From a virus (Duplodnaviria; Caudoviricetes): a stretch of DNA of 64,000 bases. The translations under genes were made by a program, and so were the position numbers. The stretch's first letter is position 1. Each line of letters opens with the position of its first letter. The stretch lies in IMG/VR virus record IMGVR_UViG_3300025715_000009, positions 128,001 to 192,000 of that record. The stretch is one strand, 5' to 3'. This document shows, one piece after another, positions 20,590 to 52,463 of this stretch. The notes below the pieces were generated by a model that was given only the letters and a program-made list of their open reading frames with translations, made no database searches and was not told the origin of the DNA.

Positions 20590-20826
20590 TTATTTAGATA
20601 GTAATAATAATTTAGCAATTAAAAATTCAGAATCTTGAGTTGGTTTATACCGCTTTTTAAATGCATCATAATCTTTGTTGGATATAAATACTTTCTCTTT
20701 TACTATAACAGTGTTATTTAATTTATTATATTTGAGACGACTAGCCCAAAATCCAGATTCAGTATCCTCTAATTTATTAAATAGAGTTATATGAGTCGTT
20801 GTTTCTTTGTAAAAAATTAACATCAA
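20590..20826 (-). CDS. Hypothetical protein, type-A C-terminal signature (LIAKLLL)
   Basis: ORF track. Confidence 0.65.
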   Translation of the reverse strand: MMLIFYKETTTHITLFNKLEDTESGFWASRLKYNKLNNTVIVKEKVFISNKDYDAFKKRYKPTQDSEFLIAKLLLLSK

Positions 20827-21088
20827 AAAATTCTCTTAATTGATCATTTTGAAGGATTGCTTTTGCAACAACATCTGATCCTTCATTTAATTCTTGAAAA
20901 GGTTTAATACGAGATAAAAATTTATCTATATCTTTAGCTTGAATTCTTGAAATATGTTTTTTGACAGCTTTTGTTTTACGATCAATATAAACACTAATGA
21001 TAACTGGGCCCATAGAAAGCATAAGAGGTCTATAAATTACTACATATCGTGGAGTGATTTTATGATAAATTTTATTTTCTAATTGCAT
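20777..21088 (-). CDS. Hypothetical protein, type-A signature (VVAKAIL); start revised to MQLENK
   Basis: GAGGAG RBS before ATG 21088. Confidence 0.65.
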   Translation of the reverse strand: MQLENKIYHKITPRYVVIYRPLMLSMGPVIISVYIDRKTKAVKKHISRIQAKDIDKFLSRIKPFQELNEGSDVVAKAILQNDQLREFFDVNFLQRNNDSYNSI

Positions 21089-21089
21089 A

Positions 21090-21395
21090 TTATCTCCTCT
21101 CCAATAGTAGTAATTCTTTGGCTGCCAGAATTTTATCTGGATAAGATTCAACTATATCTCTTGCTTGAGGATAATAATCACAAGATGGATCTTTATTCTT
21201 CATATAGAGCAGAGACAGCCAAAGCTTCTCTTCTGGGATTAGTTCCTCATTAGTAAAATCAAGCATTACAGATTGATGATTTATCTCAAGTATTAAAGTT
21301 CCAGCAATATAACATCCTCCAAACCCTGGGATATTATGATACATATTCTTTAGATGATAAATAAGATCTTTATGCTCTACTGTAATCTTACTCAT
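21090..21395 (-). CDS. Hypothetical protein, type-A signature (LAAKELLLL)
   Basis: ORF track; GAGG RBS. Confidence 0.7.
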   Translation of the reverse strand: MSKITVEHKDLIYHLKNMYHNIPGFGGCYIAGTLILEINHQSVMLDFTNEELIPEEKLWLSLLYMKNKDPSCDYYPQARDIVESYPDKILAAKELLLLERR

Positions 21396-22716
21396 AATTC
21401 CTCACAATTGTAAGACACTCATCAATAGTATGAACTTCGCCCTCAAGCTGTTTGTCCATAACAAATCCAAGAATCTCTTTGAATTTAGGACCAGGTTTCA
21501 TACCAAGATCAATAAGGTGTTTTCCGGTAAGAATAGGCTTAGGTAGCTGTTTCTCATTCTTCATCTTATCAGCAAGAGACTTGACAAAAGTAACACCATC
21601 CATTTTAGTATGAGCTCTCTCAGAATCAGCAGGATGACAAGAAAGGCAGTCAGCCTCAAAAAGAGTAATCAATTTATCAAAATGAGGTTGAGCAATGAAC
21701 TTGCGAACCGTTGCCTTGCGCATATCCTGCATAGTTCCAATCTGCATGTGGTAAGCTACAAGAGAAGTAATCATCTCTTTATCAAAATTTGAAGACTTCA
21801 TTCTCTCCATAATGGAAAGAGCAATATCAGCCCCAACTTTATCATGATTATGACAAGAAATATTACCATCAGCATTTACAACTGAAGTAGCAGGCTTGCC
21901 AACATCATGAAGAAGAGCTGCCCAAAGAAGATTAAGGTCATTAGTTCTCTCTCGAGTAGCATCTAAAACCATCATGGTATGTATGCCGCAGTTACCCTCA
22001 CTATGCCACTTGGCAGATTGCTCACAATTCCAGAGAGTAGATACCTCAGGAAGAATTTGATCAAGCAACCCAAGAGATCTGAGCATTTCAAAAGCAATTG
22101 AAGGCTTATCAGAGATAAGCATCTTATCAAGCTCATCTTTGATCCTCTCAATAGAGACATCATGTATGCGATGAGCATTTTTGCGGATTATATTTTTAGT
22201 ATCCTCGTCCATTGAGAAATCAAGTTTGGCAGCAAATCTTACAGCTCTAAGAATACGAAGTCTATCCTCATCAATTCTATCTTGAGCATTGCCAATAAAG
22301 CGGATAACCTTATTCTCAATATCCTGTTTTCCACCAACAAAATCCATGATCTTATCATTAAGAGGATCGTAGAATAAACCGTTGATGGTAAGATCTCGAC
22401 GTTGAGCATCTTCTTTAGGCGAGGAAAAAGAGATTGACTTAGGCCTACGACCATCTATATAATTACCATCATTTCTGAAAGTGGCAACTTCATACTCTTG
22501 ACCATCTATGAGAACCACAATAATACCAAATTGCTTGCCAACAGGGATGGTTTTTGAGAAAATAGACTCAACTTTATTAGGAGTAGCATCAGTAACTATA
22601 TCAATATCATGAGGCTCAAGACCTAAAAGCATGTCTCTGACACACCCACCTGCATAATAGGCAACATGTCCGTGAGAGGAAAGAGTTTTTACAATTTGAA
22701 GTGCTCTTAAATCCAT
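21388..22716 (-). CDS. cca: CCA-adding tRNA nucleotidyltransferase with HD domain
   Basis: GGCVRD, DIDIVT, EVATFR, RRDLTIN, EDRLRILRAVRF; HD domain LLHDVGKP. Confidence 0.93.
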   Translation of the reverse strand: MDLRALQIVKTLSSHGHVAYYAGGCVRDMLLGLEPHDIDIVTDATPNKVESIFSKTIPVGKQFGIIVVLIDGQEYEVATFRNDGNYIDGRRPKSISFSSPKEDAQRRDLTINGLFYDPLNDKIMDFVGGKQDIENKVIRFIGNAQDRIDEDRLRILRAVRFAAKLDFSMDEDTKNIIRKNAHRIHDVSIERIKDELDKMLISDKPSIAFEMLRSLGLLDQILPEVSTLWNCEQSAKWHSEGNCGIHTMMVLDATRERTNDLNLLWAALLHDVGKPATSVVNADGNISCHNHDKVGADIALSIMERMKSSNFDKEMITSLVAYHMQIGTMQDMRKATVRKFIAQPHFDKLITLFEADCLSCHPADSERAHTKMDGVTFVKSLADKMKNEKQLPKPILTGKHLIDLGMKPGPKFKEILGFVMDKQLEGEVHTIDECLTIVRNYE

Positions 22717-22751
22717 ATAGTTATTATATTACATAAATTCAAGCTCTAAAA

Positions 22752-23009
22752 CTAAAGGAAATACATTTCTCTTATTGAAACAAATGGTATGATAATTACA
22801 TCATCTTTAGTTGTTCTAAAAACACAATAATCATCTCCTACCATAATAAATTTTCCGCTATATTCGTTTTTATCTAAAATAATATAAACTGCTTGATTTT
22901 GAGAATATAGTTTATATATTAAAGAAGGAAATTCTCTTGGATAAGAGAATGTTTGAGCAGACAAAGATAATGATAAGATTAAAAACAAGAGAAAGATTAT
23001 TTTTTTCAA
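22752..23009 (-). CDS. Small secreted protein (signal peptide)
   Basis: MKKIIFLLFLILSLSLSA-Q. Confidence 0.7.
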   Translation of the reverse strand: MKKIIFLLFLILSLSLSAQTFSYPREFPSLIYKLYSQNQAVYIILDKNEYSGKFIMVGDDYCVFRTTKDDVIIIPFVSIREMYFL

Positions 23010-23377
23010 GCATATTCCTTTTCAATGATTGAAATAGCATGTTGAACACCAAGAGAGAAATCATCATTACCTGAAAATTCTTTTTTAAGATTTTCCAAGA
23101 TATTTTTCTTTGGTTTCTTTAACTCTTCTAATCTTTTAATAAAAGATTCTGCTTCTGGTTGAAGATGATATTTGTTAAGATCTTTGTATCTTTCAAAAGA
23201 GTAGACAGTTGTTTTTCTGGTTATTTTACCAAATAAACTTCTTTTATTCCAATAAACTTTAATATCATCAAACACATCTTCTGAAAAAGCATTGCGCGAT
23301 TCTCTTCTGATACAAACATCAAAATCAATAAAATTCTTTTCAATCTCTAATGGCAGAATCACACTACACCTCCACAA
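23006..23377 (-). CDS. Hypothetical protein
   Basis: ORF track. Confidence 0.6.
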   Translation of the reverse strand: MWRCSVILPLEIEKNFIDFDVCIRRESRNAFSEDVFDDIKVYWNKRSLFGKITRKTTVYSFERYKDLNKYHLQPEAESFIKRLEELKKPKKNILENLKKEFSGNDDFSLGVQHAISIIEKEYA

Positions 23378-24107
23378 ATTTAACTAAAGCATCAGCTTGA
23401 CGAGTTCCAGGGATGGGTACCATCTCATTAGTATTTACCACTACTTCTGCATGACCATAAAGGCGTTTTGCTTCATCATCAGCATGTTTGACAACTTGAG
23501 TATAATTATAATGAAGGCTTGCTCTCTCAATCAAAACATGATATCCACTCTTTGTCTGAATTACATGATAAATAACACCATGATTTTTGAAATCAGAACA
23601 TGCTTCTTGAACAAGCGCAATCTCTGGAACATCAAGATCAATATCAAGCAAAGAAAGTGTTCCTCTTGCCCTTTGATAACAGTTCATAAGCATGGTATCT
23701 AATTTAGCCAAGTTACCATAAGCCTCTGGATTGTCAGAGAGGTCAAAGAGAAGTTGATTTGTCTTCTCATAGAATTCCTTGAGAGCCTTTTTGCCAGACA
23801 CAGGATTGATGTTGGCATATACTACAAGACACTTGCTTGGAAGACGAATATCAGATCGAGAAGTATAAGCATCCTCATGAACTTCATAAGATCTTAGCAC
23901 CCTGAGAAAAGTAGAAAAGTCAGTCTTCTTGACCAACTTGCGGGCAAACATTTCTGTCCTTCCAAGATCAATCTCTTTCCTCTCTTCTGGTGTTAGATAT
24001 TTGTTTCGAGCAGATAGAGAGAGAAAGTAAGCCTCTTCTGGTTTAAGAGGAGAAAGAAGAGAATGGAAAAGCTTTACTTGTTCAATGTCATAAATAAATT
24101 CAGTCAT
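23364..24107 (-). CDS. Archaeo-eukaryotic primase (AEP)-superfamily-like protein
   Basis: hhDIDLD (motif I), TKSGYH (motif II), downstream PIPGT. Confidence 0.5.
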   Translation of the reverse strand: MTEFIYDIEQVKLFHSLLSPLKPEEAYFLSLSARNKYLTPEERKEIDLGRTEMFARKLVKKTDFSTFLRVLRSYEVHEDAYTSRSDIRLPSKCLVVYANINPVSGKKALKEFYEKTNQLLFDLSDNPEAYGNLAKLDTMLMNCYQRARGTLSLLDIDLDVPEIALVQEACSDFKNHGVIYHVIQTKSGYHVLIERASLHYNYTQVVKHADDEAKRLYGHAEVVVNTNEMVPIPGTRQADALVKFVEV

Positions 24108-24109
24108 AT

Positions 24110-25144
24110 TTACCTCTCAATGGTTCCACTTCCAATTACAATATTATTCTGATATAAAGCAACAATTTGACCTGGTGTAACACCTTTTTGTGGGATAGAG
24201 AAAACAATCTCATCTCCTACAACAGAAGACAAAATAGGAGTATGATTCTGCCTAATCTTGGCATAAATAGGATCATTTGTAATAGGAGAGAAAAAGAATT
24301 TGTTCATCTTTAATGAAGATGAAAAGATCTCTGCCTCTGTGGCTACAACAATTCTATTATTAACAGAATCAATCTCTTTGACAAAAAGAGGAGTAGTAGA
24401 TCCTACATTTATCCCCTTCCTCTGACCAATAGTATAATTAGTAATGCCAACATGGCGACCAAGAATCTTGCCAGTAGTATCAATGATGTCTCCTGGTATA
24501 GAAGGAAATAAAATCTTATATCCTGTTCCAATAAAATCTTGTGAATCTTTCTTGTCAGCAGTCTCAAGACCAAAATCTGCAGCCATCTTTCTGGTCTGCT
24601 CCTTGGTATATTCACCAAGAGGGAACATAACCTTATTTAAGATAAAAGGAGAAAGCTTGCTAAGAAAATAGGACTGATCCTTTTTAGAATCTAGAGCCTT
24701 ACAAACAAAAGACTTATCACCACATCTCTTAATACGAGCATAATGACCAGTAGCAAAATAATCAAATTCTATTCCACTCTTGAATACCTTATCCAAAAAA
24801 ACACCAAACTTGATTTTGTCATTACACATAACACAAGGATTAGGTGTCCTACCTGCATTATACTCAGAAGTAAAGTAGTTCATTACCTCAACACTAAACT
24901 CAGCAGATACATCAATTACATGATAAGGGATATCATGTTTAGCACATATACTCTTACAGGTGTCAATATCCTTGAGTTTGTCTGACCCATAGCAAGAAGT
25001 AGAATTAGCCAATTTATCACGAAGAGGATTATTAGGATTATATGTTTTCATAGTAATGCCGACAACATCATAACCTTGATTCTTGAGCAGAATTAAAGTA
25101 GTAGTAGAGTCAACACCACCAGATAGGCCTACGGCAATCTTCAT
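24110..25144 (-). CDS. mnmA: tRNA U34 2-thiouridylase
   Basis: SGGVDS PP-loop, GRTPNPCVMCN, ATGHYA, KDQSYFL, YTIGQRKG, TPGQ. Confidence 0.95.
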   Translation of the reverse strand: MKIAVGLSGGVDSTTTLILLKNQGYDVVGITMKTYNPNNPLRDKLANSTSCYGSDKLKDIDTCKSICAKHDIPYHVIDVSAEFSVEVMNYFTSEYNAGRTPNPCVMCNDKIKFGVFLDKVFKSGIEFDYFATGHYARIKRCGDKSFVCKALDSKKDQSYFLSKLSPFILNKVMFPLGEYTKEQTRKMAADFGLETADKKDSQDFIGTGYKILFPSIPGDIIDTTGKILGRHVGITNYTIGQRKGINVGSTTPLFVKEIDSVNNRIVVATEAEIFSSSLKMNKFFFSPITNDPIYAKIRQNHTPILSSVVGDEIVFSIPQKGVTPGQIVALYQNNIVIGSGTIER

Positions 25145-25320
25145 AGTATCTTTATTTTATATCGATCTAGCCAATCTCTAAAATTAAGTTTATCAGAATA
25201 AAATCCAATACTAACCCTTACTGGGAATTCTTTTCCTCCAAGCTTATATAGTTCTTCAGCTTGGTCATTAGTCATATATTTAATTTCTGGTAGGTTTTTA
25301 AGTTTGAATAGGGTTTTCAT
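25141..25320 (-). CDS. 59-aa hypothetical protein (not in ORF track)
   Basis: MKTLFKLKNLPEIKYMTNDQAEEL...RYKIKIL*; AAGGAG RBS; ATGA overlaps on both sides. Confidence 0.7.
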   Translation of the reverse strand: MKTLFKLKNLPEIKYMTNDQAEELYKLGGKEFPVRVSIGFYSDKLNFRDWLDRYKIKIL

Positions 25321-25643
25321 TTCTTCTCCTTGGTTAGAATATATTTTTTACTATTATCATGTCCATAAGCTGGAATTAAAAAGATCTTGTCTTTAAAAGT
25401 AGAAATATAAAACCCATGATCTGCCATAAATACCATTTCTTCTTTTTGGATCCAAGAAGCAGAAAAAGTAGAATCTTTTAAATAAACTTTATATATTCCA
25501 TCAGATTGAAATACGATTATTCCTAAATTGGTTGTCAACCCATCCCATCTTTCTGCTGATAAATTCCACTTGCCAGTAAGATTAACTTGAGCAAATAAAA
25601 AAACAGAAAGAAAAAGAAATAGGATAAAGAAAACCTTTTTCAT
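25317..25643 (-). CDS. Secreted protein (signal peptide), lipocalin-like LTGKW start
   Basis: MKKVFFILFLFLSVFLFA-QVNLTGKW. Confidence 0.7.
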   Translation of the reverse strand: MKKVFFILFLFLSVFLFAQVNLTGKWNLSAERWDGLTTNLGIIVFQSDGIYKVYLKDSTFSASWIQKEEMVFMADHGFYISTFKDKIFLIPAYGHDNSKKYILTKEKK

Positions 25644-25652
25644 GCTATCTCC

Positions 25653-26318
25653 TTATTTAAGAACAATGATTGGAGTGTTAGTATATATATCTTCATTTTC
25701 ATAAAATAATTCTATATTTAAATAATCAATGTTTGAAATTTGTTCATTTATTGCCATGTGAATAAAATCTTTCCAAGATTTATATTCTATCATAACATCT
25801 TGTTTATCAAAAGATTGGTTTCGCCATTTAAAAACATCTAAATTAGTCATACTAGAATGAAAGACAGAAGATATAATTGCTGCTTTTTTATTTTCATTAT
25901 TAATGTTTAAAATAGCAACTGGTATAATCATTCGACTAGATTCTGAAAAAATATGATATCCACCGTTTTTTAATTTATAGTCAGTAATAATTTTATTTAT
26001 GCCTTGAACAAGTTTTGTATTAAAATATTTTATATCCCTTGGTTTCCAATTTGGCAAATCACAAAATTTTATTTTAAATGATTGATCTTTATTATTACAC
26101 CATCCTTGACCAGTGATGAATCTTTCTTCAAATCTATCGTCAAAATGTGGTACTTTAACATATATCTGTAGAGATAAACCAGTTTTAGAATTTATTATTT
26201 TTTCATTACCAATTTTTCTAAAATTAGAACTATTTAACTCCTGTTGCGAGATTGTTTTATCTAATTGTTCTTCATTTAATGAAAAATTAATTATATCATC
26301 TAGAGTATATAGATTCAT
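25653..26318 (-). CDS. Hypothetical protein
   Basis: ORF track; HFDDRFEER motif. Confidence 0.65.
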   Translation of the reverse strand: MNLYTLDDIINFSLNEEQLDKTISQQELNSSNFRKIGNEKIINSKTGLSLQIYVKVPHFDDRFEERFITGQGWCNNKDQSFKIKFCDLPNWKPRDIKYFNTKLVQGINKIITDYKLKNGGYHIFSESSRMIIPVAILNINNENKKAAIISSVFHSSMTNLDVFKWRNQSFDKQDVMIEYKSWKDFIHMAINEQISNIDYLNIELFYENEDIYTNTPIIVLK

Positions 26319-26599
26319 ATCTCTCTATAACCCTTATTTATCTTTTCTCTTATTTTTCTTTCTAAAGAGCCGGCTACTTCAGCAGATTGAACAGCTTTAC
26401 CAATCCTTCCCCAATAAGCAAGATATTTAAATTTAGTAATTGGTTGGGCAGACCAGAATTTATAGTGCTCCTCTTGGGTGTTTACGAACACTCTGCCAGG
26501 AAATTGAAGTTTAAGTTTTGCTTCGTCCCAAATCTCAAGCTTTTCTGGTTTATCCATATTATGACAACTGCTCCTTTGCTTTTTTAACAAAGTAATCAT
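26315..26599 (-). CDS. WGR-domain protein
   Basis: HYKFW...AYWGRIGK..Q...KINKGYRE. Confidence 0.75.
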   Translation of the reverse strand: MITLLKKQRSSCHNMDKPEKLEIWDEAKLKLQFPGRVFVNTQEEHYKFWSAQPITKFKYLAYWGRIGKAVQSAEVAGSLERKIREKINKGYREI

Positions 26600-26819
26600 T
26601 GATAAATGGCATAATTTTGTTTATTTTCTTTATATTTTCCTCGGGTTCAACTATTTGGAAAAAATCAACCCAGGTAAGAGTTTTTTCTTGTACATGACCA
26701 TTACGCCATTCGATTACATCTACATAATCAGAGTAGATTTGTTGTACATAATACCAGACACCATCAGCCTTGAAGAGAGTAGAGTTATACTTCTCTCTAA
26801 GTATATCAATCAATTTCAT
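26559..26819 (-). CDS. Hypothetical protein (ends KAKEQLS)
   Basis: ORF track. Confidence 0.65.
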   Translation of the reverse strand: MKLIDILREKYNSTLFKADGVWYYVQQIYSDYVDVIEWRNGHVQEKTLTWVDFFQIVEPEENIKKINKIMPFINDYFVKKAKEQLS

Positions 26820-26833
26820 ATTAGGATATATGC

Positions 26834-26863
26834 AAAAAAAGAGGCTTTCAAAGCCTCTTTTTT
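26834..26863. terminator. Intrinsic terminator
   Basis: aaaaaagaggcttt-c-aaagcctctttttt. Confidence 0.85.
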
Positions 26864-26866
26864 AAA

Positions 26867-26983
26867 TTATTTCTTTTTAAACATTTCTTTTATAGAATCA
26901 AGAGCTCGTTGTATATCCTTAGGGAATGTAGCTCCTACAACTACTCCTGCCATAAAGAAAACAAGAATAACTACTACTATCAT
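26867..26983 (-). CDS. 38-aa single-TM protein (not in ORF track)
   Basis: MIVVVILVFFMAGVVVGATFPKDIQRALDSIKEMFKKK*; AGGAGG RBS. Confidence 0.7.
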   Translation of the reverse strand: MIVVVILVFFMAGVVVGATFPKDIQRALDSIKEMFKKK

Positions 26984-27597: not shown

Positions 27598-27624
27598 TAT
27601 AATTACAATTAATTATATTTGGAT

Positions 27625-28392: not shown

Positions 28393-28401
28393 ATTAACTC
28401 C

Positions 28402-31319: not shown

Positions 31320-31329
31320 TTATTTACTC

Positions 31330-31530: not shown

Positions 31531-31557
31531 ATTATTTCTCCTTTGTCAATCGTTTAA

Positions 31558-40428: not shown

Positions 40429-40733
40429 TTCACTTCTCCTATAAACTTAATTGGTGATGAAAAAATAGTTTTAATAATCAAATTATGATCCAACTTATTT
40501 AAATCCTTGTGCCAATTTTCATATATATTTCTAACTTGGTTTTGACCATGTAATTGATTAGATGTTATGGTCTTACCAGTTATATTACTATAATAACCAA
40601 AAAAATAATGTATTTCACATTCCAGCAATAAATTTGACCAATCAAATTTGGATATAGTAAAATATCCAAATTCTAATCCATCACTACTTTTCCAATAATA
40701 ATAAGCTTCACCTTTATAATTAGATGGAAACAT
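40425..40733 (-). CDS. Hypothetical protein, type-B signature (HNLIIKTIF)
   Basis: ORF track. Confidence 0.65.
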   Translation of the reverse strand: MFPSNYKGEAYYYWKSSDGLEFGYFTISKFDWSNLLLECEIHYFFGYYSNITGKTITSNQLHGQNQVRNIYENWHKDLNKLDHNLIIKTIFSSPIKFIGEVK

Positions 40734-40909: not shown

Positions 40910-40910
40910 T

Positions 40911-41693: not shown

Positions 41694-41704
41694 TCTAATC
41701 CTCC

Positions 41705-42031: not shown

Positions 42032-42045
42032 ATTATTCTCCTATA

Positions 42046-44112: not shown

Positions 44113-44191
44113 TATTTACATACTCCTATTATAAGGGAACTTGTAATTATCTTTATGTTTATTGAAGAAAAAGATAGTTTTTAGCAAGAAA

Positions 44192-44611
44192 TTATGACAG
44201 ATTTAATTTTGATATGATTTGTTTAAAATCTTGAAATTCAAAAATTATTTTTAATGTTTTATGTAAATTTTTTTTATAAGATACTTCCAAATTACCATAT
44301 TTTAATATTAAAATAAATATATCAACTAAATCTTTTTCTGAAAAATTTTCAACATTTTCCTGAAATGTCTTGTATGGTGTTTCTCTAAATGGTGGATCAA
44401 AATATTTTTGAGTGTTTATTCTTAAATTGGCTTTATTTTTAATAAGATATTTAGCTATTTCCGCCCCATCTTTATGTTTGCCAGTTAGACAATAAAACAA
44501 TAAAGTTCTACCATAACTATCTCTTGTATTAATATCAATATGATCAGAGATAATTAAACTTAAAACATCTTGTAGTTGACCCTTAGCCAACATTCTGTTT
44601 ATTTCAACCAT
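44192..44611 (-). CDS. Ankyrin-repeat protein with type-B-like signature (HKTLKIIF)
   Basis: DINTRDSYGRTLLFY...EIAKYLIKNKAN. Confidence 0.75.
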   Translation of the reverse strand: MVEINRMLAKGQLQDVLSLIISDHIDINTRDSYGRTLLFYCLTGKHKDGAEIAKYLIKNKANLRINTQKYFDPPFRETPYKTFQENVENFSEKDLVDIFILILKYGNLEVSYKKNLHKTLKIIFEFQDFKQIISKLNLS

Positions 44612-44614
44612 GAT

Positions 44615-44836
44615 TTATAATTCACCAATTTTTGCTGTAAAGATATATTTAATAAATTTTCTCAGATGTTGCTTTTTAGCTGGAATATAATCAAATACTC
44701 TTATTCTATCATAAGATAAATAATCTATTTCTAATTTATTAATATCTTTGTCATATAATATAATTATACTAATAGGTTTAACATGTAAAAAGAGGCACTC
44801 AAAAGTATATTTAGTTCTTTTAGCGTAATTCCACAT
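44615..44836 (-). CDS. Small protein, tandem paralogue of 44843, type-B signature
   Basis: MWNY...ECLFL.VKPISII.LYD...AKKQHLRKFIKYIFTA. Confidence 0.75.
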   Translation of the reverse strand: MWNYAKRTKYTFECLFLHVKPISIIILYDKDINKLEIDYLSYDRIRVFDYIPAKKQHLRKFIKYIFTAKIGEL

Positions 44837-44842
44837 AATATT

Positions 44843-45064
44843 TTATATCTCACCAATTTCTGCTGTAAAGATATATTTAATGAATTTTCTTAAATGTTGT
44901 TTTTTAGCAGAAGTAAATTCTCTTATTACTACTAAATCATATTTTTTATGTCGTATTTCGAGTATATTAAATTTTTCATCATATAATAATATTATACTAA
45001 TTGGTTTAACGTTTAAAAAGAGACATTCGTATTTATATTTATTTCCTGGTGTATAATTCCACAT
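44843..45064 (-). CDS. Small protein, tandem paralogue of 44615 (start revised to MWNY)
   Basis: The ORF-track extension overlaps a terminator; AAGATAAT lies 3 nt before ATG 45064. Confidence 0.75.
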   Translation of the reverse strand: MWNYTPGNKYKYECLFLNVKPISIILLYDEKFNILEIRHKKYDLVVIREFTSAKKQHLRKFIKYIFTAEIGEI

Positions 45065-45083
45065 AATATTATCTTGCAAAAAA

Positions 45084-45106
45084 AAAGAGAGCAAGATGCT
45101 CTCTTT
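45084..45106 (-). terminator. Intrinsic terminator
   Basis: aaagagagca-aga-tgctctcttt plus T-tract; same stem as 50637-50661. Confidence 0.85.
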
Positions 45107-45124
45107 AAAATAAAACAACAATTA

Positions 45125-45394
45125 TTATACTTTATTGCCTTGTAATAATATCTTGGCAGCTATATTTGGTTCAGGATCAATTAAAATTCCACCTTTTAAC
45201 CAATCACAAAAATCATCCATTTTCATCTCTTGTTGGTTTACATATTGTCCATCTTTGCTAACACGACAAACAACATAAAGATCATTTTCATCTCCATCTT
45301 TAGGAGCGTATTTTGTTACATCGATAACACGGATGACATCTGCTCCATCAAAAACAACTGGAGGCATTGTAACTTGAAACATTCTTCCAATCAT
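45125..45394 (-). CDS. Hypothetical protein, type-A signature (IAAKILL)
   Basis: ORF track; GAGG RBS. Confidence 0.7.
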   Translation of the reverse strand: MIGRMFQVTMPPVVFDGADVIRVIDVTKYAPKDGDENDLYVVCRVSKDGQYVNQQEMKMDDFCDWLKGGILIDPEPNIAAKILLQGNKV

Positions 45395-45396
45395 AT

Positions 45397-45699
45397 TTAC
45401 CTCTTCATTTGTAATCTAAATTTTGCTTCATCGCTTATATTATCAAATTTTACTAAATAAATTCTATTCTTTTTTTTACTATCTATTAAAAATCCTTGAA
45501 GTGATATTTGTCCAATGAATTGTAAGTTTATATCATAATTATCTATGAGAAAAAATAATGTATCTTGTATCATTCCAACATCTAAAATATGATAATATCT
45601 ACTAAAAGAAGAAGTCATAGTATCAAATGATAATGAATCATATAAAATATCATTTGGGCGTATATCTTCTACTGATTTTATTTCAATTAACTCAGACAT
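45397..45699 (-). CDS. Hypothetical protein (ends EAKFRLQMKR)
   Basis: ORF track. Confidence 0.65.
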   Translation of the reverse strand: MSELIEIKSVEDIRPNDILYDSLSFDTMTSSFSRYYHILDVGMIQDTLFFLIDNYDINLQFIGQISLQGFLIDSKKKNRIYLVKFDNISDEAKFRLQMKR

Positions 45700-47455
45700 T
45701 TGGATATTTTTTATAAAAATCTGACTCTACATCCTTGGCCCATTCAAAACGAGCTTGTACTGATGGAGTATAAAGGCGCTTGATATCTACATTATTATCC
45801 TTACACCAACTAATACCAATCCTCGGATCAGAATAATTCAGTTTAGATGTACCAAGAGCAACGCCCTTGGTTTTTTCTTTCATATCAATTTTAGATTGAA
45901 GGTCATTAATTCTTTCTTCGAGCTTATTTAGCTTTTTAGTAAGAGCTTCCTCTTTCTTTTTATATGTTTCTTTAGCTCTCCTTATACTATCTTTTTTTCT
46001 ATCACCAGTATACTTCTCAGCAAAGGAGATACGCTTATCTCTTTCTTGTTTGAGAAGATCAAGCTCTTGTTTGAGAGATGCCTTAATATTTTTAAATTCA
46101 TTTTTATATGTCTTAAGCTTATCCTTCATGTTCTGCAGAGAGCGTTCATATGCTTCAGAAACAGCAGATTGGTGATTAAGCTTAAGAGCAACTTCTAAAT
46201 TGGCATTAACATAATACTCAAGTTTTTTCTTCTCAGAAAGAGAAGAATTGATTTTTTGAGCTTGTAATTCCTTGGCTAGAAGAACAGAGCCGGTAGCTGT
46301 TCTAAATTGTTTCGCAGTGAGACCAGGAAGTACCATACCCAAGAATTCATTGACATCAGAACTTGTAATTGAATCAAAAACTTGTTCACTTTTTCCTTTA
46401 CCATTAATAAACTCCTCTATATTACGAATTGCATTAATATGCAAATTCTCTACACGATTATGGTAGCGAATGCTATCTTTGCCAAGAAAATCAAAAACAA
46501 CTGCTGTCCCATCAACTTGAATATGCTCTACTCTCAGAGTAGTAGCACCCACGGTATCAGCTTCGTCTTCATCTTTTTCATCTCCTACACGAATACTCAT
46601 TTTGGCAATGAGCTCGCAGACAGTTGCAATTTGACGAGTAGAACGATCACGAGATGCAAGTTTCTTTTCAATAAATGAATTTACTTTATCAAAGTTATTT
46701 GCCAGCTCTATTGCCTTGGCAAATTTCTTTTCAGCTGATTTGTGAGATACAATAGAAGTAGCAGAAAAGAGGATTGGTTTAAATTTGCCAGTAAGAGGAC
46801 AATACCACCCAGCAGTAAAAAGACTATTTTGATTCTCTTCTACCCTCTTCCAAGAATGACCTTCAGGAGGAGAAGGAGGGTTAAGATTGAGAGAGTGGTT
46901 AATTATAACATCTTCAGGGGCGATTGCTCTTTTCCATGAACCACGAAGAGGATGATTACCTCTCCCAAGGAAAAGGCCAGCAGGTTCAACCACATAATTA
47001 CCAAGAGGAACTTTTTGACCATCAAGTTCAGCAAAACCATGAATAGCTTTTAGCTCTTCTCTCTTCCTCTTCTCTTCTTCTTTTACCTCTTTCCCAATCT
47101 GCTTTTTTTCATCTCTTTGAGCAATATAAATTCGTCGTAGTTTAGTAAAATCCCAGTCTTCAGGAAACTTAGATTTCTTTATCTCTTCATAATCAAGGTA
47201 GTTGTTAAGAGTAGAATTAGCAAGACCATCAGAAAATGTTTTGATAAAGTCTTTAAAAAAATTCTTTTGAAAAGTTTTGTCTTTTACATATGGTGTTTCA
47301 AATTTAGCAACCCAAGCCCATGCCATTTCTTCTTGTTTGGAAGTGAAAACAAATTCTTTATCAAACAGCTTAAAACAGGCACCCTTAAACTGATAAGGTT
47401 TAGGGAATACAGGGCCATTATGTTTAAGTGTTTTCCATTTTTCTGCCATATTCAT
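45692..47455 (-). CDS. DNA topoisomerase IB, long eukaryote/Thaumarchaeota type
   Basis: KWKTLKHNGPVFP, EPAGLFLGRGNHP, IRVGDEKD, FDFLGKDSIRY, GLTAKQFRT, LNHQ, coiled-coil linker, GTSKLNYSDPRI (catalytic Tyr). Confidence 0.96.
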   Translation of the reverse strand: MNMAEKWKTLKHNGPVFPKPYQFKGACFKLFDKEFVFTSKQEEMAWAWVAKFETPYVKDKTFQKNFFKDFIKTFSDGLANSTLNNYLDYEEIKKSKFPEDWDFTKLRRIYIAQRDEKKQIGKEVKEEEKRKREELKAIHGFAELDGQKVPLGNYVVEPAGLFLGRGNHPLRGSWKRAIAPEDVIINHSLNLNPPSPPEGHSWKRVEENQNSLFTAGWYCPLTGKFKPILFSATSIVSHKSAEKKFAKAIELANNFDKVNSFIEKKLASRDRSTRQIATVCELIAKMSIRVGDEKDEDEADTVGATTLRVEHIQVDGTAVVFDFLGKDSIRYHNRVENLHINAIRNIEEFINGKGKSEQVFDSITSSDVNEFLGMVLPGLTAKQFRTATGSVLLAKELQAQKINSSLSEKKKLEYYVNANLEVALKLNHQSAVSEAYERSLQNMKDKLKTYKNEFKNIKASLKQELDLLKQERDKRISFAEKYTGDRKKDSIRRAKETYKKKEEALTKKLNKLEERINDLQSKIDMKEKTKGVALGTSKLNYSDPRIGISWCKDNNVDIKRLYTPSVQARFEWAKDVESDFYKKYPNV

Positions 47456-47470
47456 ATTATAATCCTTTTA

Positions 47471-48019
47471 TTAATTCTCTAAATTAAGTAATAGTTTGGC
47501 TGCTCTTGCTTGCAAACGATCAAAATCATCAATGAATAAAAATATATCATAACTCCAATGGCCATAACTCCCACTACCAGACCCTGTGTTTAATGGTATA
47601 GGATATATATTATTTTTATAACTAGGAAGATATTCTCCTTTACTTGTATAAGTTTTTCCACTTATCCTGCCTCTATATCCAGGATAACCAAATGGGAGTT
47701 CAGGTTTATTATGCCAGTTTGTTGGTTTTCCTACTGGAGCATGATGACTATTAGACACCTCTGGATTAAATGTGACATCAAGAGATATATCATCAATATG
47801 GTCATCATACATTTCTTTAAGAAAATCATTTATCACTTCAAGATAGTTATCTAAATCAAAGTTTTTATAAAATTTTGCAACTGCATTTGCATAATTATTT
47901 TTTCTAAATTCTTCTAAAGCAGCTTCTTTTCTACAAATATCTTCATGCTCAAAAGCTTTTTTTATATTAGAGAATTTCTTTTTACAGTACTCACATTGAT
48001 AATGCTCAACTATAATCAT
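47471..48019 (-). CDS. C2H2-like Zn-finger protein, type-A signature (RAAKLLL)
   Basis: YQCEYCKKKF...HEDIC. Confidence 0.7.
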   Translation of the reverse strand: MIIVEHYQCEYCKKKFSNIKKAFEHEDICRKEAALEEFRKNNYANAVAKFYKNFDLDNYLEVINDFLKEMYDDHIDDISLDVTFNPEVSNSHHAPVGKPTNWHNKPELPFGYPGYRGRISGKTYTSKGEYLPSYKNNIYPIPLNTGSGSGSYGHWSYDIFLFIDDFDRLQARAAKLLLNLEN

Positions 48020-48020
48020 C

Positions 48021-48293
48021 TTAATGCTCCAATAAATATTTAGCCATTATTACATCAAATTCATCTTTTGTTATTACTTTTATAGCTGTTTTTAATAATC
48101 TATTTATCCCAGCCAAGTTATGAACAATATCACCCTCTGTTAAACCATAACTTGAAAAATAATAAAATTTAACTTTATATTCATAAGTTTTATCTGTCTT
48201 TCTTCTTGAGTATAAAAAATAATATTCATCGTCATCATCTTTTACATTATGTCTTTTACAAACAAATACTTGACCAACTTTATGCACCTTCAT
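48021..48293 (-). CDS. Hypothetical protein, type-A signature (IMAKYLL)
   Basis: ORF track; AAGGAG RBS. Confidence 0.7.
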   Translation of the reverse strand: MKVHKVGQVFVCKRHNVKDDDDEYYFLYSRRKTDKTYEYKVKFYYFSSYGLTEGDIVHNLAGINRLLKTAIKVITKDEFDVIMAKYLLEH

Positions 48294-48639
48294 TTAATTG
48301 CTCCTTGGCAATAACATCCCACCCTATTTTAACTATTGATCCAACATAAATTTTATGATCTAAAACTCTTTTTGGCACCCATTTAATCAACTCATCTGGG
48401 TCTTTCATATTACTAAAACTCCAAGTATAATACTTGGTGTCTGTTTTGCCTTTTTCACAAAATAATCTTATTTTATAAATAAATTTTTTATTAAATTTTC
48501 TTTTATCTACTATTTCCATATACTTTAAAGAATTATATGGAAAAAATTGGGTTGTTCTTCCCAATCCATCTTTCGAGACATCACTATCAAACCCATAACT
48601 TTTGGGACAAGTAAAAACATCACCAACTTCGAACATCAA
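48280..48639 (-). CDS. Hypothetical protein, type-A signature (VIAKEQL)
   Basis: ORF track. Confidence 0.7.
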   Translation of the reverse strand: MMFEVGDVFTCPKSYGFDSDVSKDGLGRTTQFFPYNSLKYMEIVDKRKFNKKFIYKIRLFCEKGKTDTKYYTWSFSNMKDPDELIKWVPKRVLDHKIYVGSIVKIGWDVIAKEQLNEGA

Positions 48640-48829
48640 AACTCCAATTTTCGCATATACTACAAGAAGGATCTATATCATCAATATTTATTTGATTAGC
48701 ATCACAATATATATAACCTTTACCTTTAATCAAATAATAACAATTAATACATAGTTTAACATCTTGATTATTTAATAATTCCTTGGCCAAAAAATTGACT
48801 GGCCATTGTTGGGGAACTACTCTTCTCAA
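48620..48829 (-). CDS. Cys-rich small protein with internal FLAKELL
   Basis: CINC...C...CSIC. Confidence 0.55.
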   Translation of the reverse strand: MRRVVPQQWPVNFLAKELLNNQDVKLCINCYYLIKGKGYIYCDANQINIDDIDPSCSICENWSFDVRSW

Positions 48830-49014
48830 ACGTTTTCTACCCCAGTAATCTTAATTCCATATTCATCTTTTTCCCAAGTGAATTGGAATTTTTTCCTCTT
48901 ATCCACCCAATCTTCAAGAGAGTCAAGATGTCCATCATCAGTAATGAGCATATTATACTCTTTACAAAGATCAGCAAATTTTTCTAAAAATTCATGCTGG
49001 AATCTATTCATCTC
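48826..49014 (-). CDS. Hypothetical protein (probable start near EMNRFQ)
   Basis: ORF track; AAGGAG upstream of MNRFQ. Confidence 0.55.
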   Translation of the reverse strand, partial: EMNRFQHEFLEKFADLCKEYNMLITDDGHLDSLEDWVDKRKKFQFTWEKDEYGIKITGVENV

Positions 49015-49201
49015 TTCTCTCCTTGATAAATTTATTGATATCAATTTCTTGACCATTAAAATAAAAATGATCACCAGAAAATGGACGCAAAATAGCTTTG
49101 ATTAGTTGAATAATATAAGTTAATATTGTGGATAAAATTATTATTCCACCTAAAAATATCCAAAAACCATTAAATAATAATAGTTGTAATATCTCAATCA
49201 T
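49004..49201 (-). CDS. Small membrane protein
   Basis: Hydrophobic N-terminal helix; ATGA overlap. Confidence 0.6.
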   Translation of the reverse strand: MIEILQLLLFNGFWIFLGGIIILSTILTYIIQLIKAILRPFSGDHFYFNGQEIDINKFIKERRDE

Positions 49202-49821
49202 TTAAATAATTCTCCCTTAGAATTATACCAGAAAACAAAATCAAGAGCAAAAACAGGAATATTAATATCATGGGCAAAATCAATCATTTTACTTTCAATT
49301 TCTAAATATGCTTTTTTATTCATATGCCTAGGAACTTCAGGGATGACTTTGTTAGCTACAAGATTTCTAAGAATATGGCGATCAAGAATACAAATTTCAT
49401 CACCAAAACCAACATTTCTAAGAAAATGACTTGCTTCTTTCATGCCCAATCCATTAATAGTATCTGCAAGCCAATTTCTTGTTTCTACTACTCCGATCTC
49501 TGCAATTTTATTTTCAACTATATTTTTAATATTGCTATATTGATTAATTGCTTGAGCAATATACTTGGCTTTGTTTTTATTAAATCTTACACCAGCTGCA
49601 CTTAATTCTTGCTGAATTAGATATTGATCTGGTATATTTAAAAGATTTGACTTAGTAAGATATTGAACTGCTTTCCACCCACACTTAGCATTTGTTTGTG
49701 GAGTGCAAAGACAAAACACAAGTTCTGAAAATACTTCTTGTCCACCTAATTTCCAAATTGTTTTAAATGTTAGGTATCGTTGATCAATCTCTGGTTTAAT
49801 TTGTTTGTAGATCTGCAACAT
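49198..49821 (-). CDS. ogg: 8-oxoguanine DNA glycosylase/AP lyase (Ogg2, Thermotoga/archaeal type)
   Basis: ELVFCLCTPQ, GVRF.KNKA.YI, HhH GLGMKEASHFLRNVG (catalytic Lys), ILDRH (catalytic Asp), C-terminal ..FK. Confidence 0.9.
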   Translation of the reverse strand: MLQIYKQIKPEIDQRYLTFKTIWKLGGQEVFSELVFCLCTPQTNAKCGWKAVQYLTKSNLLNIPDQYLIQQELSAAGVRFNKNKAKYIAQAINQYSNIKNIVENKIAEIGVVETRNWLADTINGLGMKEASHFLRNVGFGDEICILDRHILRNLVANKVIPEVPRHMNKKAYLEIESKMIDFAHDINIPVFALDFVFWYNSKGELFK

Positions 49822-50362
49822 GTTCTCCCCTATGATAAATAAAATCTAAATATATTTTGACAAATGATTCATTGATAGTATAATAATCATATTCATCATT
49901 TCTTATAACTGGCAATACAGATGAAGAGAGTAAAAGCGTTTTAACCCATATAATATCACTATCTATATTTGTTATACATTCTTCTAATTCTTGATAAAAT
50001 AAAAATCCAATGTCTGTAAACTCATAATAATAACTTGGTTCATAAAATAATTTTAATAATCCAGCAGCTTCAAATCCTTCAACCAACTCTCTAGAAAGTT
50101 TCAATCCAAAATGAATTAAACGTTCATTGTTATCATAATCTTGAACAGTGCTACATGCTCTAAGTAATTTAATATGAGGAATTTTACCAAATTTATAATG
50201 TTTAGCATCTTCAGTGCTTATCGTAGTGAGAATTTTAAAATATAACATTAATGCTATCGCATTGTTATCAGATACTTCTTTATCATTAGATGCAAAAATT
50301 GGGAGTATTTTATTATCTGATAATAGTTTAATGAATTTTTGTTTATTGACTTCTATATCCAT
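49796..50362 (-). CDS. Hypothetical protein (start revised to MDIEV)
   Basis: TATAAT-6 nt-ATG; KIPHIKLLR...GLKLSRELVE recalls the L7/L12 C-terminal fold. Confidence 0.6.
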   Translation of the reverse strand: MDIEVNKQKFIKLLSDNKILPIFASNDKEVSDNNAIALMLYFKILTTISTEDAKHYKFGKIPHIKLLRACSTVQDYDNNERLIHFGLKLSRELVEGFEAAGLLKLFYEPSYYYEFTDIGFLFYQELEECITNIDSDIIWVKTLLLSSSVLPVIRNDEYDYYTINESFVKIYLDFIYHRGEHVADLQTN

Positions 50363-50404
50363 GTGGATATTATACAATAGATAGGATATATTCTAAATAA
50401 TAAA

Positions 50405-50587
50405 TCAGTGGGTAGAGGCTTCAACAAAGAATTGAAGTTGTTCAAGTAATTCTTGTTTTGGTAGTAAATTCTTTTTTAAAATTACTTGACCAGCCTTCTC
50501 ATGATTGTTCTGTGAAAAAGAGAGTATCTCTTTTTTCAAATTCTTGTCTATTTTACCCCTTGACTCCAAGAAATCCAAAAAATCCAT
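50405..50587 (-). CDS. 60-aa MshEN/GspE-N-like protein
   Basis: FLESRGKID....KEIL and KAGQVILKKNLLPKQELLEQL resemble the RLGxxLxxxGxIxxxxLxxxL motif. Confidence 0.45.
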   Translation of the reverse strand: MDFLDFLESRGKIDKNLKKEILSFSQNNHEKAGQVILKKNLLPKQELLEQLQFFVEASTH

Positions 50588-50636
50588 GGCTTCTCCATCT
50601 GAACGAATATATTATTATCTTATGTAGAAACAATAA

Positions 50637-50661
50637 AAAAGAGAGCAAAAAGCTCTCTTTT
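50637..50661. terminator. Intrinsic terminator
   Basis: aaaagagagc-aaaaa-gctctctttt. Confidence 0.85.
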
Positions 50662-50676
50662 GTAAAAATTAACTAA

Positions 50677-51501
50677 TTAAACATTTTTATGATATTGCAA
50701 ATCCCTTACATACCTTGCTACTATTTCATGAATAGGATTATAGTCCCAAGAAGAATTTCTTACATCTTCCCAAGCGGAAGACCAGGTTTTAATTTTATCC
50801 ATATCCACTTCAGACCATGTAGTGCGAAGTGAATTAAGATAATCTATTACTTCTTGAACAGTTGCTTTTTGTTCTTGAGATCGTAAAATAAAAAGGCGAT
50901 CTTGTTCGGCCTTATCTATGGCTTGTGATAGACCAAGAGCTACAATCTTTTGTGTCTCTTCTTCTGTTAGATAATGTTTATTGTATGATACTTGTATAAG
51001 TAGTTCTTTGGCTTGCATGATCATGAATTGATTAACAATCAGATCACGTTTAACTTCCTTATCTAGATCTTTATATGCCTGTTTTCCTTTTTCTTCCATC
51101 CATCTATATTTTTGATACCCAATTTTTTTCTTTTCATCTTCTGAGAGAGCATCCCAAGCTTCTTGGCCTAATTTATCTTTAAGATCATTTCTAGCCTTAT
51201 TTGTTTCTGACATAACTCTCTTCATAAGAGCCTCTGCCAGATTGATATCTACACCCTTATCTTTAAAATGATGAATACATTCACTTCCTACTTTTAGAAT
51301 TTGTTCTGTTTTAAGGTTTTTAACTTCATAGGCAAAGGCACAATTTTTGTGTCCACAAAGCTGACAATCAAAAAATCTAGGATCGTAATAAGCATTGACA
51401 AGCTTAAACTCGTCATCAGGATTAGATGATATATTTGCTAGGTTTAATTGGATGCGATTAACAAAAGATTGAGAGCGGTATATCTTGTTATTATAATTCA
51501 T
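50677..51501 (-). CDS. Zn-binding hypothetical protein
   Basis: CQLCGH..C...VGSECIHHF; TGaTATAAT and GGGGG RBS upstream. Confidence 0.7.
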   Translation of the reverse strand: MNYNNKIYRSQSFVNRIQLNLANISSNPDDEFKLVNAYYDPRFFDCQLCGHKNCAFAYEVKNLKTEQILKVGSECIHHFKDKGVDINLAEALMKRVMSETNKARNDLKDKLGQEAWDALSEDEKKKIGYQKYRWMEEKGKQAYKDLDKEVKRDLIVNQFMIMQAKELLIQVSYNKHYLTEEETQKIVALGLSQAIDKAEQDRLFILRSQEQKATVQEVIDYLNSLRTTWSEVDMDKIKTWSSAWEDVRNSSWDYNPIHEIVARYVRDLQYHKNV

Positions 51502-51540
51502 ACATCCCCCTAATGATATTATATCATTAAAAAGAGTTGT

Positions 51541-52104
51541 CTAAACTATTGAAACACGGCCCTGATTATCTATGGCTATAACTGACTTACATTGTGGACA
51601 TCTAAATCTTCCAGATTTTTTAGTAGATAATTTTTTATCACAAATTGGACATTTAAAAACTCTTGGAAAGATGATTTCTTTATCATCAACTGTTATATTT
51701 TTAGCCAAATTATTGATTGCTTCTTCAAAAGAATCATCAAAATTAAAAAATGTAGAGAATCCTAATAGTTGAAAAACTTCAAAAACCTTAGGTTTCATAT
51801 TAATAATACTTATGTTTCCATTTTTATTTTTAGCTGTTTTTAAAAAATCAACAAATGCTCCAATTCCAGTTGATGACATATAGTCAATTCCACCACAATC
51901 AAAAATTAATTTGATATAGCGAGCATTAAAACACATATCTACTTTCTGTTTAAAGAACTTTGTGTTATAATTATCAACCACACCATGACATTCTATTAAA
52001 AGCATATCATGGTGTGTTGGTATACGACGTAAGCGAATTTTAAAATCTTTTACAGTTTCTTTATCAAAGCCTGGAATTATCAAATCATTATCATTATAAG
52101 ACAT
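51541..52104 (-). CDS. STAS anti-sigma-factor antagonist with C-terminal Zn ribbon (spirochaete type)
   Basis: IDYMSSTGIG, PKVFEVFQLLGF, FP..FKCPIC...GRFRCPQC, N-terminal IPGFD. Confidence 0.9.
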   Translation of the reverse strand: MSYNDNDLIIPGFDKETVKDFKIRLRRIPTHHDMLLIECHGVVDNYNTKFFKQKVDMCFNARYIKLIFDCGGIDYMSSTGIGAFVDFLKTAKNKNGNISIINMKPKVFEVFQLLGFSTFFNFDDSFEEAINNLAKNITVDDKEIIFPRVFKCPICDKKLSTKKSGRFRCPQCKSVIAIDNQGRVSIV

Positions 52105-52463
52105 CAGTACTCCTGATTTAGTAATATTTTAGCAGCAAAATCATATGGTATAAATTTTATTTTGATTATTAAATTAGTTTCAAAATATAAATTGCTTAAC
52201 ATATAAATTTCACCATTGTTGTTATCTTTAACAAAATTGCCTATTTTTATTAATAACTCTCCTAATCTTAATAAATCTAATTTGTTCTTATAAACATGAA
52301 TTTCAAAACAAAAATATCTTTTTCTTTTATCCCATTCACCCTTAGTAGTAAAATATTTTTCATATTTATCAATAAAAAGAGTTAAAAGTTGTTGTTCTAT
52401 ATCTTGATTTAAAAAATCTTTAACTTGTTGTGCATAGACTTCATATTCTTGTTTAGTAATCAT
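52104..52463 (-). CDS. Hypothetical protein, type-A signature (FAAKILL)
   Basis: ORF track; AGGAG RBS. Confidence 0.7.
   Translation of the reverse strand: MITKQEYEVYAQQVKDFLNQDIEQQLLTLFIDKYEKYFTTKGEWDKRKRYFCFEIHVYKNKLDLLRLGELLIKIGNFVKDNNNGEIYMLSNLYFETNLIIKIKFIPYDFAAKILLNQEY

Follow-up and report, generated by a model that had tools for sequence, protein, structure and literature searches.

A terminal AKxLL element on dozens of otherwise unrelated small proteins of a huge tailed phage and its relatives

The 64-kb window analyzed here comprises bases 128001-192000 of the 388,268-bp single-contig IMG/VR phage record IMGVR_UViG_3300025715_000009 and contains a series of small genes whose products share a short terminal element, AKxLL, on otherwise unrelated bodies. 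Window coordinates refer to this stretch, and G000 coordinates to the whole 388-kb record (G000). G000, which is 98% complete according to CheckV and has a GC content of 29.7%, belongs to a huge tailed phage and includes baseplate genes of the gp25 type as well as gp2-like genes (DNA end protector). A set of 610 genes was called using a codon-usage score, with 537 of them on the minus strand; the genes have Shine-Dalgarno sites. Pfam matches in the window include a CCA-adding enzyme, topoisomerase IB (TopoIB), Ogg and STAS proteins, all four of which had been named in a preliminary description of this DNA, as well as an ankyrin protein. Elsewhere in G000, Pfam identified a DnaE-type polymerase, a gp32-like single-stranded DNA-binding protein, a tubulin-like protein, and two AAA/MoxR plus DUF2201_N/vWA modules.

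The preliminary description had reported a shared C-terminal A-K-x-x-L tag on about 11 small proteins of this region and proposed that it represents a portable docking, targeting, or degron peptide. The carriers and doubtful cases in the window are listed below by open reading frame (ORF), strand, and position of the motif.

9568-9798, minus strand, motif 9580-9594: 76-residue orphan without a Pfam family, with a weak C-terminal tag ending in SSNAKEKLLQS
20590-20826, minus strand, motif 20602-20616: 78-residue orphan with the C-terminal tag EFLIAKLLLLSK and no Pfam family above the cut-off
20777-21151, minus strand, motif 20852-20866: ORF with a non-terminal VVAKAILQ, whose status as a tag is doubtful
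21090-21395, minus strand, motif 21108-21122: 101-residue orphan with the C-terminal tag KILAAKELLLLERR (TKMLL in the orthologue from the related genome G004)
26559-26819, minus strand, motif 26565-26579: 86-residue orphan with a weak C-terminal variant ending in KKAKEQLS
44192-44611, minus strand, motif 44573-44587: 139-residue ankyrin-repeat protein with the N-terminal MLAKGQL, a weak variant and possibly a chance match
45125-45394, minus strand, motif 45143-45157: 89-residue orphan with the C-terminal tag DPEPNIAAKILLQGNKV, the best documented carrier
45397-45699, minus strand, motif 45412-45426: 100-residue orphan with a weak C-terminal variant ending in DEAKFRLQMKR
47471-48019, minus strand, motif 47486-47500: 182-residue protein with a phrog_12523 body and a C-terminal tag ending in RAAKLLLNLEN
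48021-48293, minus strand, motif 48030-48044: 90-residue orphan with a C-terminal tag ending in DVIMAKYLLEH
48280-48639, minus strand, motif 48295-48309: 119-residue orphan with a weak C-terminal variant ending in VIAKEQLNEGA
48620-48829, minus strand, motif 48773-48787: 69-residue zinc-ribbon-like protein with the N-terminal tag NFLAKELLNNQDVKLCINC
52104-52463, minus strand, motif 52119-52133: 119-residue orphan with the C-terminal tag YDFAAKILLNQEY

All peptides cited in the preliminary description are present where it had placed them, and ten of the twelve are C-terminal (in the genes ending at 9568, 20590, 21090, 26559, 45125, 45397, 47471, 48021, 48280, and 52104). The two exceptions are VVAKAILQ, which lies 29 residues before the end of ORF 20777-21151, and FLAKELLNN, which had been called internal and is actually N-terminal (residues 13-21 of 69 in ORF 48620-48829). 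Four of the cited cases (26559, 45397, 48280, and 9568) are weak variants, which match AK..L and do not match AK.LL; the orthologue of the 45397 protein in the relative L045 reads ERAKFLLLMNTSS at its end. Between 20590 and 21395 on the minus strand, three successive small ORFs (20590-20826, 20777-21151, and 21090-21395) overlap by 50-62 nt as longest-ORF calls with uncertain true starts, and ORF 20777-21151 probably starts at the ATG located right after the stop codon at 21090.

The distribution of the motif was analyzed in the complete gene set of G000 using the last 18 residues of each protein as the C-terminal window and the first 22 residues (codons) as the N-terminal window. An enumeration of all 3-residue gapped patterns (39,074 patterns) in the last 18 residues versus the rest of each protein revealed 30 C-terminal matches to AK..L, where the internal rate predicts 7.1 (Poisson p = 1.6e-10). 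The C-terminal patterns stronger than this (H.L.K, K.YL, and DYL) all derive from one 30-member family of MORN-repeat proteins and are trivial. After shuffling each terminal window 500 times, the strict form AK.LL was found 18 times at C-termini compared with 0.44 ± 0.65 in the shuffled sequences, and 24 times at N-termini compared with 0.52. With one representative retained per BLAST family, the respective counts were 17 versus 0.38 and 11 versus 0.43. The C-terminal enrichment anticipated in the preliminary description is therefore borne out against both shuffled and internal controls, but the tag is not a C-terminal motif only, since N-termini carry a similar number of copies. Proteome-wide, AK.LL has 50 in-frame copies versus ~3.4 expected by composition, of which 24 fall within the N-terminal window, 19 fall within the C-terminal window, and only 7 are internal. 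The AKxLL set is broader than the approximately 11 proteins initially reported, comprising dozens of small proteins with the element at either terminus.

N-terminal copies follow the pattern M-x(3-14)-AK-x-LL-[LNG], with the Ala at residue 7 in 13 of 24 copies, and after a C-terminal copy the protein continues for 1-12 residues, most often two. The body side of the C-terminal copies is mildly rich in Pro (5.8% versus 3.0%) and Asp (10.8% versus 6.6%), and in the zinc-ribbon and MORN carriers 0-3 residues separate the tag from the body. Decoy patterns (KA..L, L..KA, AR..L, and AK..I/F/V) exhibited no comparable enrichment. When the back-translated DNA pattern was searched in the three frames, enrichment was confined to the coding frame (19/0/0 at C-termini and 24/0/1 at N-termini), with codons that differ among AKxLL copies. 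In the orthologues of the 45125 protein (69-94% identity), the sequence DPE..AAKILL.GNK is kept with synonymous changes at the Ala, Ile, and Leu codons, and a hand count of small-protein orthologue pairs (29-74% identity) showed the tag kept as [AST]K..L in 15 of 17. The restriction to the coding frame and the retention of these residues through synonymous changes indicate that selection acts on the protein, as had been proposed earlier from the variation of the codons.

Relatives of G000 were obtained via TopoIB, TerL, and MoxR. The occurrence of AK..L in these genomes and in phage T4 is given below.

G001: GC 41%; AK..L at 13 N-termini and 16 C-termini, about 2.8 expected per terminus
G002 (63% fragment without the MoxR region): GC 30%; 12 N-termini and 8 C-termini (weak), 2.5 expected per terminus
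G003: GC 29%; 5 N-termini and 17 C-termini, 1.3 expected per terminus
G004: GC 31%; 12 N-termini and 18 C-termini, 1.8 expected per terminus
G005: GC 36%; 5 N-termini and 20 C-termini, 4.2 expected per terminus
G006 (more distant, MoxR 35% identical): GC 54%; 2 N-termini and 3 C-termini, 1.1 expected; negative
T4, first 100 kb: 0 N-termini and 2 C-termini, 1.1 expected; negative

The examination of related phages suggested in the preliminary description thus revealed enrichment of AK..L in G001, G003, G004, and G005. In the unbiased enumeration of C-terminal patterns, AK..L ranked first in G003 (p = 2e-13) and G004 (p = 1e-12) and second in G001 and G005. The negative results for G006 and T4 indicate that AT-rich phage proteomes do not generally show the AKxLL enrichment. 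Within the first 100 kb of T4, strict AK.LL is found at a single C-terminus, that of internal protein I (T4 record L023, 23591-23878), which ends in KIIAKNLL; this is probably a coincidence. Two large proteins considered as carriers were rejected as chance matches, namely TerL, whose N-terminal motif (MTREEHAKALLKGK) is not conserved in G002 or G005, and the STAS protein of G003. Word-based homologue searches found close orthologues only. The G003 orthologue of the 52104 protein (42% identity) ends in YDMAAKILLNQSQ.

Most of the carriers in G000 have no BLASTP paralogue, and some of them form small BLAST families (families 3, 7, and 22 and a MORN subfamily). With their last 20 residues removed, the carrier bodies are mutually no more similar than they are to non-carrier small proteins (Mann-Whitney p = 0.36), in agreement with the earlier statement that these proteins are otherwise unrelated. 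A family scan of 96 carriers from five genomes and three short related contigs against Pfam, with 51 of the 96 also compared with PHROGs, matched only MORN_2 (3 proteins), STAS (one protein, probably by chance), DUF7695, UPF0164, TPR_2, phrog_12523, and phrog_21015. The 52104 protein falls in the ESM Atlas into one phage cluster without a name (score 0.75), with low-confidence structural neighbours. Although tags are abundant in both G000 and G001, no C-terminal carrier of G000 has a BLASTP orthologue in G001, compared with ~55 other genes that do. Phages of Vibrio, Pseudomonas, and Salicola encode homologues of the phrog_12523 body of the 47471 protein, in which the shared sequence extends as far as LFLDDFP and is followed by different helices lacking AKxLL. 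At the nucleotide level, the zinc-ribbon gene at G000 69559-69765 and the MORN gene at 72913-73203 are identical over their first 33 nt (ATG ACA GTA GAT CAA GAA GCT AAA AAT TTA TTA, encoding MTVDQEAKNLL) and then continue into unrelated bodies, which suggests recombination within the tag-coding sequence.

A second tag was recognized among C-terminal phi-K-x-phi-phi sequences. Only the A..L (22 versus 4.1) and I..F (26 versus 2.9) combinations are enriched, whereas I..L, L..L, and A..F are at background level. The second tag (tag A), [IVL]-K-x-[ILV]-F, is found at 24 N-termini and 31 C-termini of G000, that is in ~55 proteins, and is weaker but present in G003-G005. Both tags occur together in just one of the 114 tagged proteins. 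The MORN-repeat paralogues (30 proteins of 61-160 residues), which are encoded in tandem arrays with ATGA stop/start overlaps, carry either one: 23 of the 30 start with MKYIAREQIKxLFxNP (the second tag) and 7 with MTIDQQAKALLLRKE (AKxLL).

Window 18444-18458, 40461-40475, 44639-44653, 44867-44881, and 52778-52792: second tag, for example IIKTIFSS, FIKYIFTA, and FIKRIFE
G000 15-16 kb, 39-45 kb, 69-73 kb, 92-101 kb, and 215-217 kb (outside the window): arrays of MORN-repeat genes

AKxLL is one of two discrete tag classes in G000. The presence of a second tag and the swapping of tags on MORN and zinc-ribbon genes fit a movable module and are hard to reconcile with a hidden protein family or a generic amphipathic end.

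Structure models of two carriers were built with AlphaFold2 (AF2) from shallow alignments. The 45125 protein was modeled as a three-stranded sheet and a helix followed by a linker (residues 69-71, predicted local distance difference test score, pLDDT, <50) and a tag helix comprising residues 76-86 of 89 (mean pLDDT 62). In the model of a MORN carrier (90 residues), the tag helix (residues 3-12) precedes the beta repeats, with pLDDT <50 over residues 1-14 and a mean of 59. In these low-confidence models the tag helix is predicted to lie apart from the better-predicted core, with no confident packing, which agrees with a free helix but does not prove it.

AKxLL is a terminal element under selection at the protein level, which is spread across the clade on unrelated bodies. 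Its protein-level conservation, unrelated carriers, selection in orthologues, clade-wide spread, and differing bodies fit a portable module. In our estimate, the chances are about even that it represents a portable terminal docking or address helix read by one common partner. AKxLL would then be the core motif in a portable helix of ~10-14 residues at the protein terminus, with the N-terminal form M-x(3-14)-AK-x-LL-[LNQG] and the C-terminal form [P/D/E-rich stretch]-phi-AK-x-LL-[LNQ]-x(1-12)-end, and the common partner would bind the exposed helix and recruit, sort, or process ~45-50 small, fast-evolving accessory proteins. Both the existence of a single reader and its identity are what we infer from these patterns. 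The portable docking or targeting peptide initially proposed is upheld as regards a portable, selected, clade-wide element acting at the protein level on MORN, zinc-ribbon, and orphan bodies, but not as regards its partner or the host-takeover role of its carriers, which is an assumption. The N-terminal copies and the 1-12 residues following the C-terminal ones argue against a degron, or any other reader, of the kind that requires a free carboxyl end.

Several observations weigh against a docking helix with a common reader. No partner was found for AKxLL, approximately 7-8 of the 60 AK..L matches are expected by chance, and some of the large carriers (TerL, a 990-residue protein, and the STAS protein of G003) are chance hits. 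Many linkers are short or absent, with three residues between LL and the first Cys in the zinc-ribbon family and a MORN helix that runs into the first strand, so that the helix might pack against the protein that carries it. With a mean pLDDT of 62 and 59, the two AF2 models are too uncertain to decide whether the helix is free. Finally, the phrog_12523 homologues have a helix at the position of the tag without the motif, which means that the tag can arise by remodelling of a native helix rather than by fusion.

Two of these features, short or missing linkers and a motif-less helix at the same position in phrog_12523 homologues, are also what one would expect of a structural element without a common reader, a terminal helix that caps or oligomerizes small domains, with AKxLL as a favoured solution spreading by recombination; the 33-nt identity indeed indicates an exchange of tag-coding DNA among genes. 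However, a generic cap would not hold Ala and Lys invariant on unrelated folds, at either terminus, and across a clade of 29-41% GC, the other phi-K-x-phi-phi combinations are not enriched, and the small proteins of T4 have nothing similar, and we regard this explanation as unlikely. A special case of docking would be a processing or degradation signal, with an AAA+ machine (the phage MoxR/vWA-zincin or a host protease) that unfolds, cleaves, or degrades the carriers for their timed removal or maturation. G000 and all tag-positive relatives encode MoxR with a vWA protein having invariant HExxH and DxSxS motifs, and there are precedents for such systems (Kaur et al. 2020, PMC7159879; Iyer et al. 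2021, PMC7824862). This appears rather improbable given that the carriers are dispersed over the genome and do not adjoin a peptidase, that the motif differs from the FxSxx, RxD, and acidic types and occurs at both termini without being anchored to a free end as in classical C-terminal degrons, and that weak homologues of MoxR and vWA are also present in G006, which is tag-negative.

Because small phage proteins diverge fast and some carriers do form small BLAST families, the carriers might alternatively be members of one very divergent family with the helix as its last recognizable remnant. This is very unlikely, as carrier bodies resemble each other no more than those of non-carriers, the tag is N-terminal in some carriers and C-terminal in others, MORN repeats, CxxC zinc ribbons, and the phrog_12523 domain are all found among the bodies, and 28 strict copies versus 0.8 expected remain with one representative per BLAST family. 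The sequence tests speak against homology of the carriers through a single fold, which the preliminary description had envisaged as a possible outcome. Least of all can the motif be attributed to a nucleic-acid signal (a promoter, ribosome-binding context, or RNA element) that happens to translate to AKxLL: in a genome as tightly packed as this one, both ends of a protein are encoded close to gene junctions, but such a signal is effectively refuted by the frame test, and the variable codons, the distance to the stop codon (1-12 codons), the synonymous drift at conserved residues, and the same motif in a relative with 41% GC (G001) make it extremely improbable.

The docking-helix reading can be extended to a protein-addressing system of the clade, in which AKxLL and [IVL]Kx[ILV]F would be two of possibly more orthogonal tags. 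These tags would mark about one quarter of the small proteins at either end and be swapped by recombination, and their dedicated receptors (the MoxR/AAA plus vWA/zincin modules or a 143-residue protein) would sort, assemble, or process ~100 proteins. We put this forward tentatively, as a possibility somewhat more doubtful than not. The candidate readers encoded in G000 are as follows.

G000 277225-278445: MoxR AAA+ protein
G000 275526-277136: vWA protein with an HExxH metallopeptidase domain
G000 279916-285894: second AAA / DUF2201_N / cREC_REC module
G000 260925-261356: 143-residue protein without a Pfam or PHROG family

Eleven proteins are common to all tag-positive genomes obtained (TopoIB, a 188-residue protein, the 143-residue protein, a PD-(D/E)XK nuclease, a 140-residue protein, MoxR, the vWA-zincin, cREC_REC, a 499-residue protein, DUF2201_N, and a 935-residue AAA protein), a set biased by the use of MoxR to find three of the genomes. 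Only MoxR and the vWA protein of this set have homologues, both weak, in the tag-negative G006. The MoxR and vWA-zincin set (Pfam AAA_5, DUF2201_N, and DUF2201) is conserved in G001 and G003-G005, and the HExxH and DxSxS motifs of the vWA-zincin are invariant in 60 homologues. In G000 these genes are part of a module at 275013-285894, which comprises the 935-residue AAA protein, DUF2201_N (303 residues), the 499-residue protein, cREC_REC, 3-4 small genes without a family, MoxR AAA_5, DUF2201_N plus vWA, STAS with a zinc ribbon, and SLT, in an order that is alike in the metagenomic relatives. The 143-residue protein is the best conserved one across the clade (80, 63, 58, and 55% identity) and showed a weak PDB sequence match to FabZ-like hot-dog proteins (E 0.04). 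It is equally possible that the reader is a host protein.

Prediction of a complex between the tail of the 45125 protein (residues 50-89) and the vWA-metallopeptidase gave a score of 0.00 in a run without controls, which speaks neither for nor against binding. The assignment of one MoxR module to each tag was unsupported, as G001 has both modules and tag A is not among its enriched C-terminal patterns. Hsp70 was rejected as a phage-encoded reader since no HSP70 gene was found in G000; the DnaK model peptide NRLLLTG resembles AK-x-LLL, a likeness that does not explain the invariant Ala. Fused MoxR-vWA-metallopeptidase pairs have been described in group 2.2 jumbo phages and proposed to act in virion assembly with proteolytic (peptidolytic) processing (Iyer et al. 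2021, PMC7824862), and zincin peptidases were reported to cleave small, rapidly diverging proteins whose conserved part is a C-terminal peptide (Kaur et al. 2020, PMC7159879).

Several other genes of this phage deserve mention. The TopoIB in the window (45692-47455, minus strand) is a full-length eukaryotic-type enzyme (Topoisom_I_N, Topoisom_I, and Topo_C_assoc; E 1e-62 to 1e-24), which is conserved in G001, G003, G004, and G005 at 37-64% identity; a megablast search of its region against GenBank phages found no match. G000 also encodes a hybrid sensor kinase of 1079 residues (58385-61624) with SBP_bac_3, PAS, HisKA, HATPase_c, and receiver domains. Its tubulin/FtsZ-like protein (7142-8182) has conserved counterparts in G001 and G002, and its DnaE-type polymerase (373123-377268) bears a UDG-like domain at the N-terminus.

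In huge phages, the majority of genes are small orphans that offer no handle for study. AKxLL groups ~8% of the G000 proteins into one set, and together with the second tag about one quarter of the small proteins, and provides an experimental hook in which the tag can be used as bait for its reader. If such a reader exists, the phage would encode a sorting or processing system of a scale so far undescribed in phages, and the two tags would supply a compact orthogonal pair for engineering.

No prior description of such a tag was found in the literature searched, as the preliminary description had presumed, but several known systems share some of its features. The ssrA and ClpX C-motif degrons are located at the extreme C-terminus with a free carboxylate, which does not apply to AKxLL with its 1-12 following residues and 24 N-terminal copies. 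The capsid targeting sequence of T4 is a common N-terminal peptide that directs unrelated small internal proteins to one destination and is followed by an (L/I)xE site for the prohead protease. In contrast, half of the AKxLL copies are C-terminal and there is no general LxE/IxE site, with LxE following AKxLL only in part of the MORN subfamily (as LRE). The clamp-binding C-terminal tails of gp43, gp55, and gp33 recognized by T4 gp45 are similar to AKxLL in that one short hydrophobic terminal peptide on unrelated phage proteins is read by one hub. In the T4 record, gp43 and gp55 have tails with SLDFLFG and SLDFLYEAND, respectively. However, the T4 system involves three replication and transcription proteins rather than ~50 orphans, is C-terminal only, and has another motif. 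No gp45-type or beta-type sliding clamp (PF02916, PF00712, and PF02768) was matched in G000, and the C-terminus of its DnaE-type polymerase is not AKxLL.

The vWA-MoxR peptide-processing systems resemble the present case in that a genome with MoxR, vWA, and zincin proteins also encodes small, rapidly diverging proteins whose terminal peptide is conserved (PMC7159879; PMC7824862), whereas the AKxLL carriers are not neighbours of a peptidase, and their motif is not of the FxSxx, RxD, or acidic type and is also N-terminal. The closest functional analogue of AKxLL is the encapsulation peptide of bacterial microcompartments (BMC), as found in PduP, PduD, EutC, and CcmN (PMC4594438). A search of the 98%-complete phage genome for BMC shell proteins (PF00936) gave no match at E<=1. 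Encapsulation peptides are short helices at the N- or C-terminus of unrelated cargo proteins, which behave as independent modules and may be followed by a few hydrophilic residues at the C-terminus (Aussignargues et al. 2015, PMC4594438). They have no conserved sequence beyond a hydrophobic pattern, in contrast to the strict A-K-x-L-L core observed here, and usually a linker of 20-90 residues (PMC4594438). The linkers of the AKxLL carriers are of 0-8 residues, with a P/D-rich stretch in some of the C-terminal carriers. Like these peptides, AKxLL is found at either terminus of unrelated proteins and is predicted by AF2, at low confidence, to form a helix.

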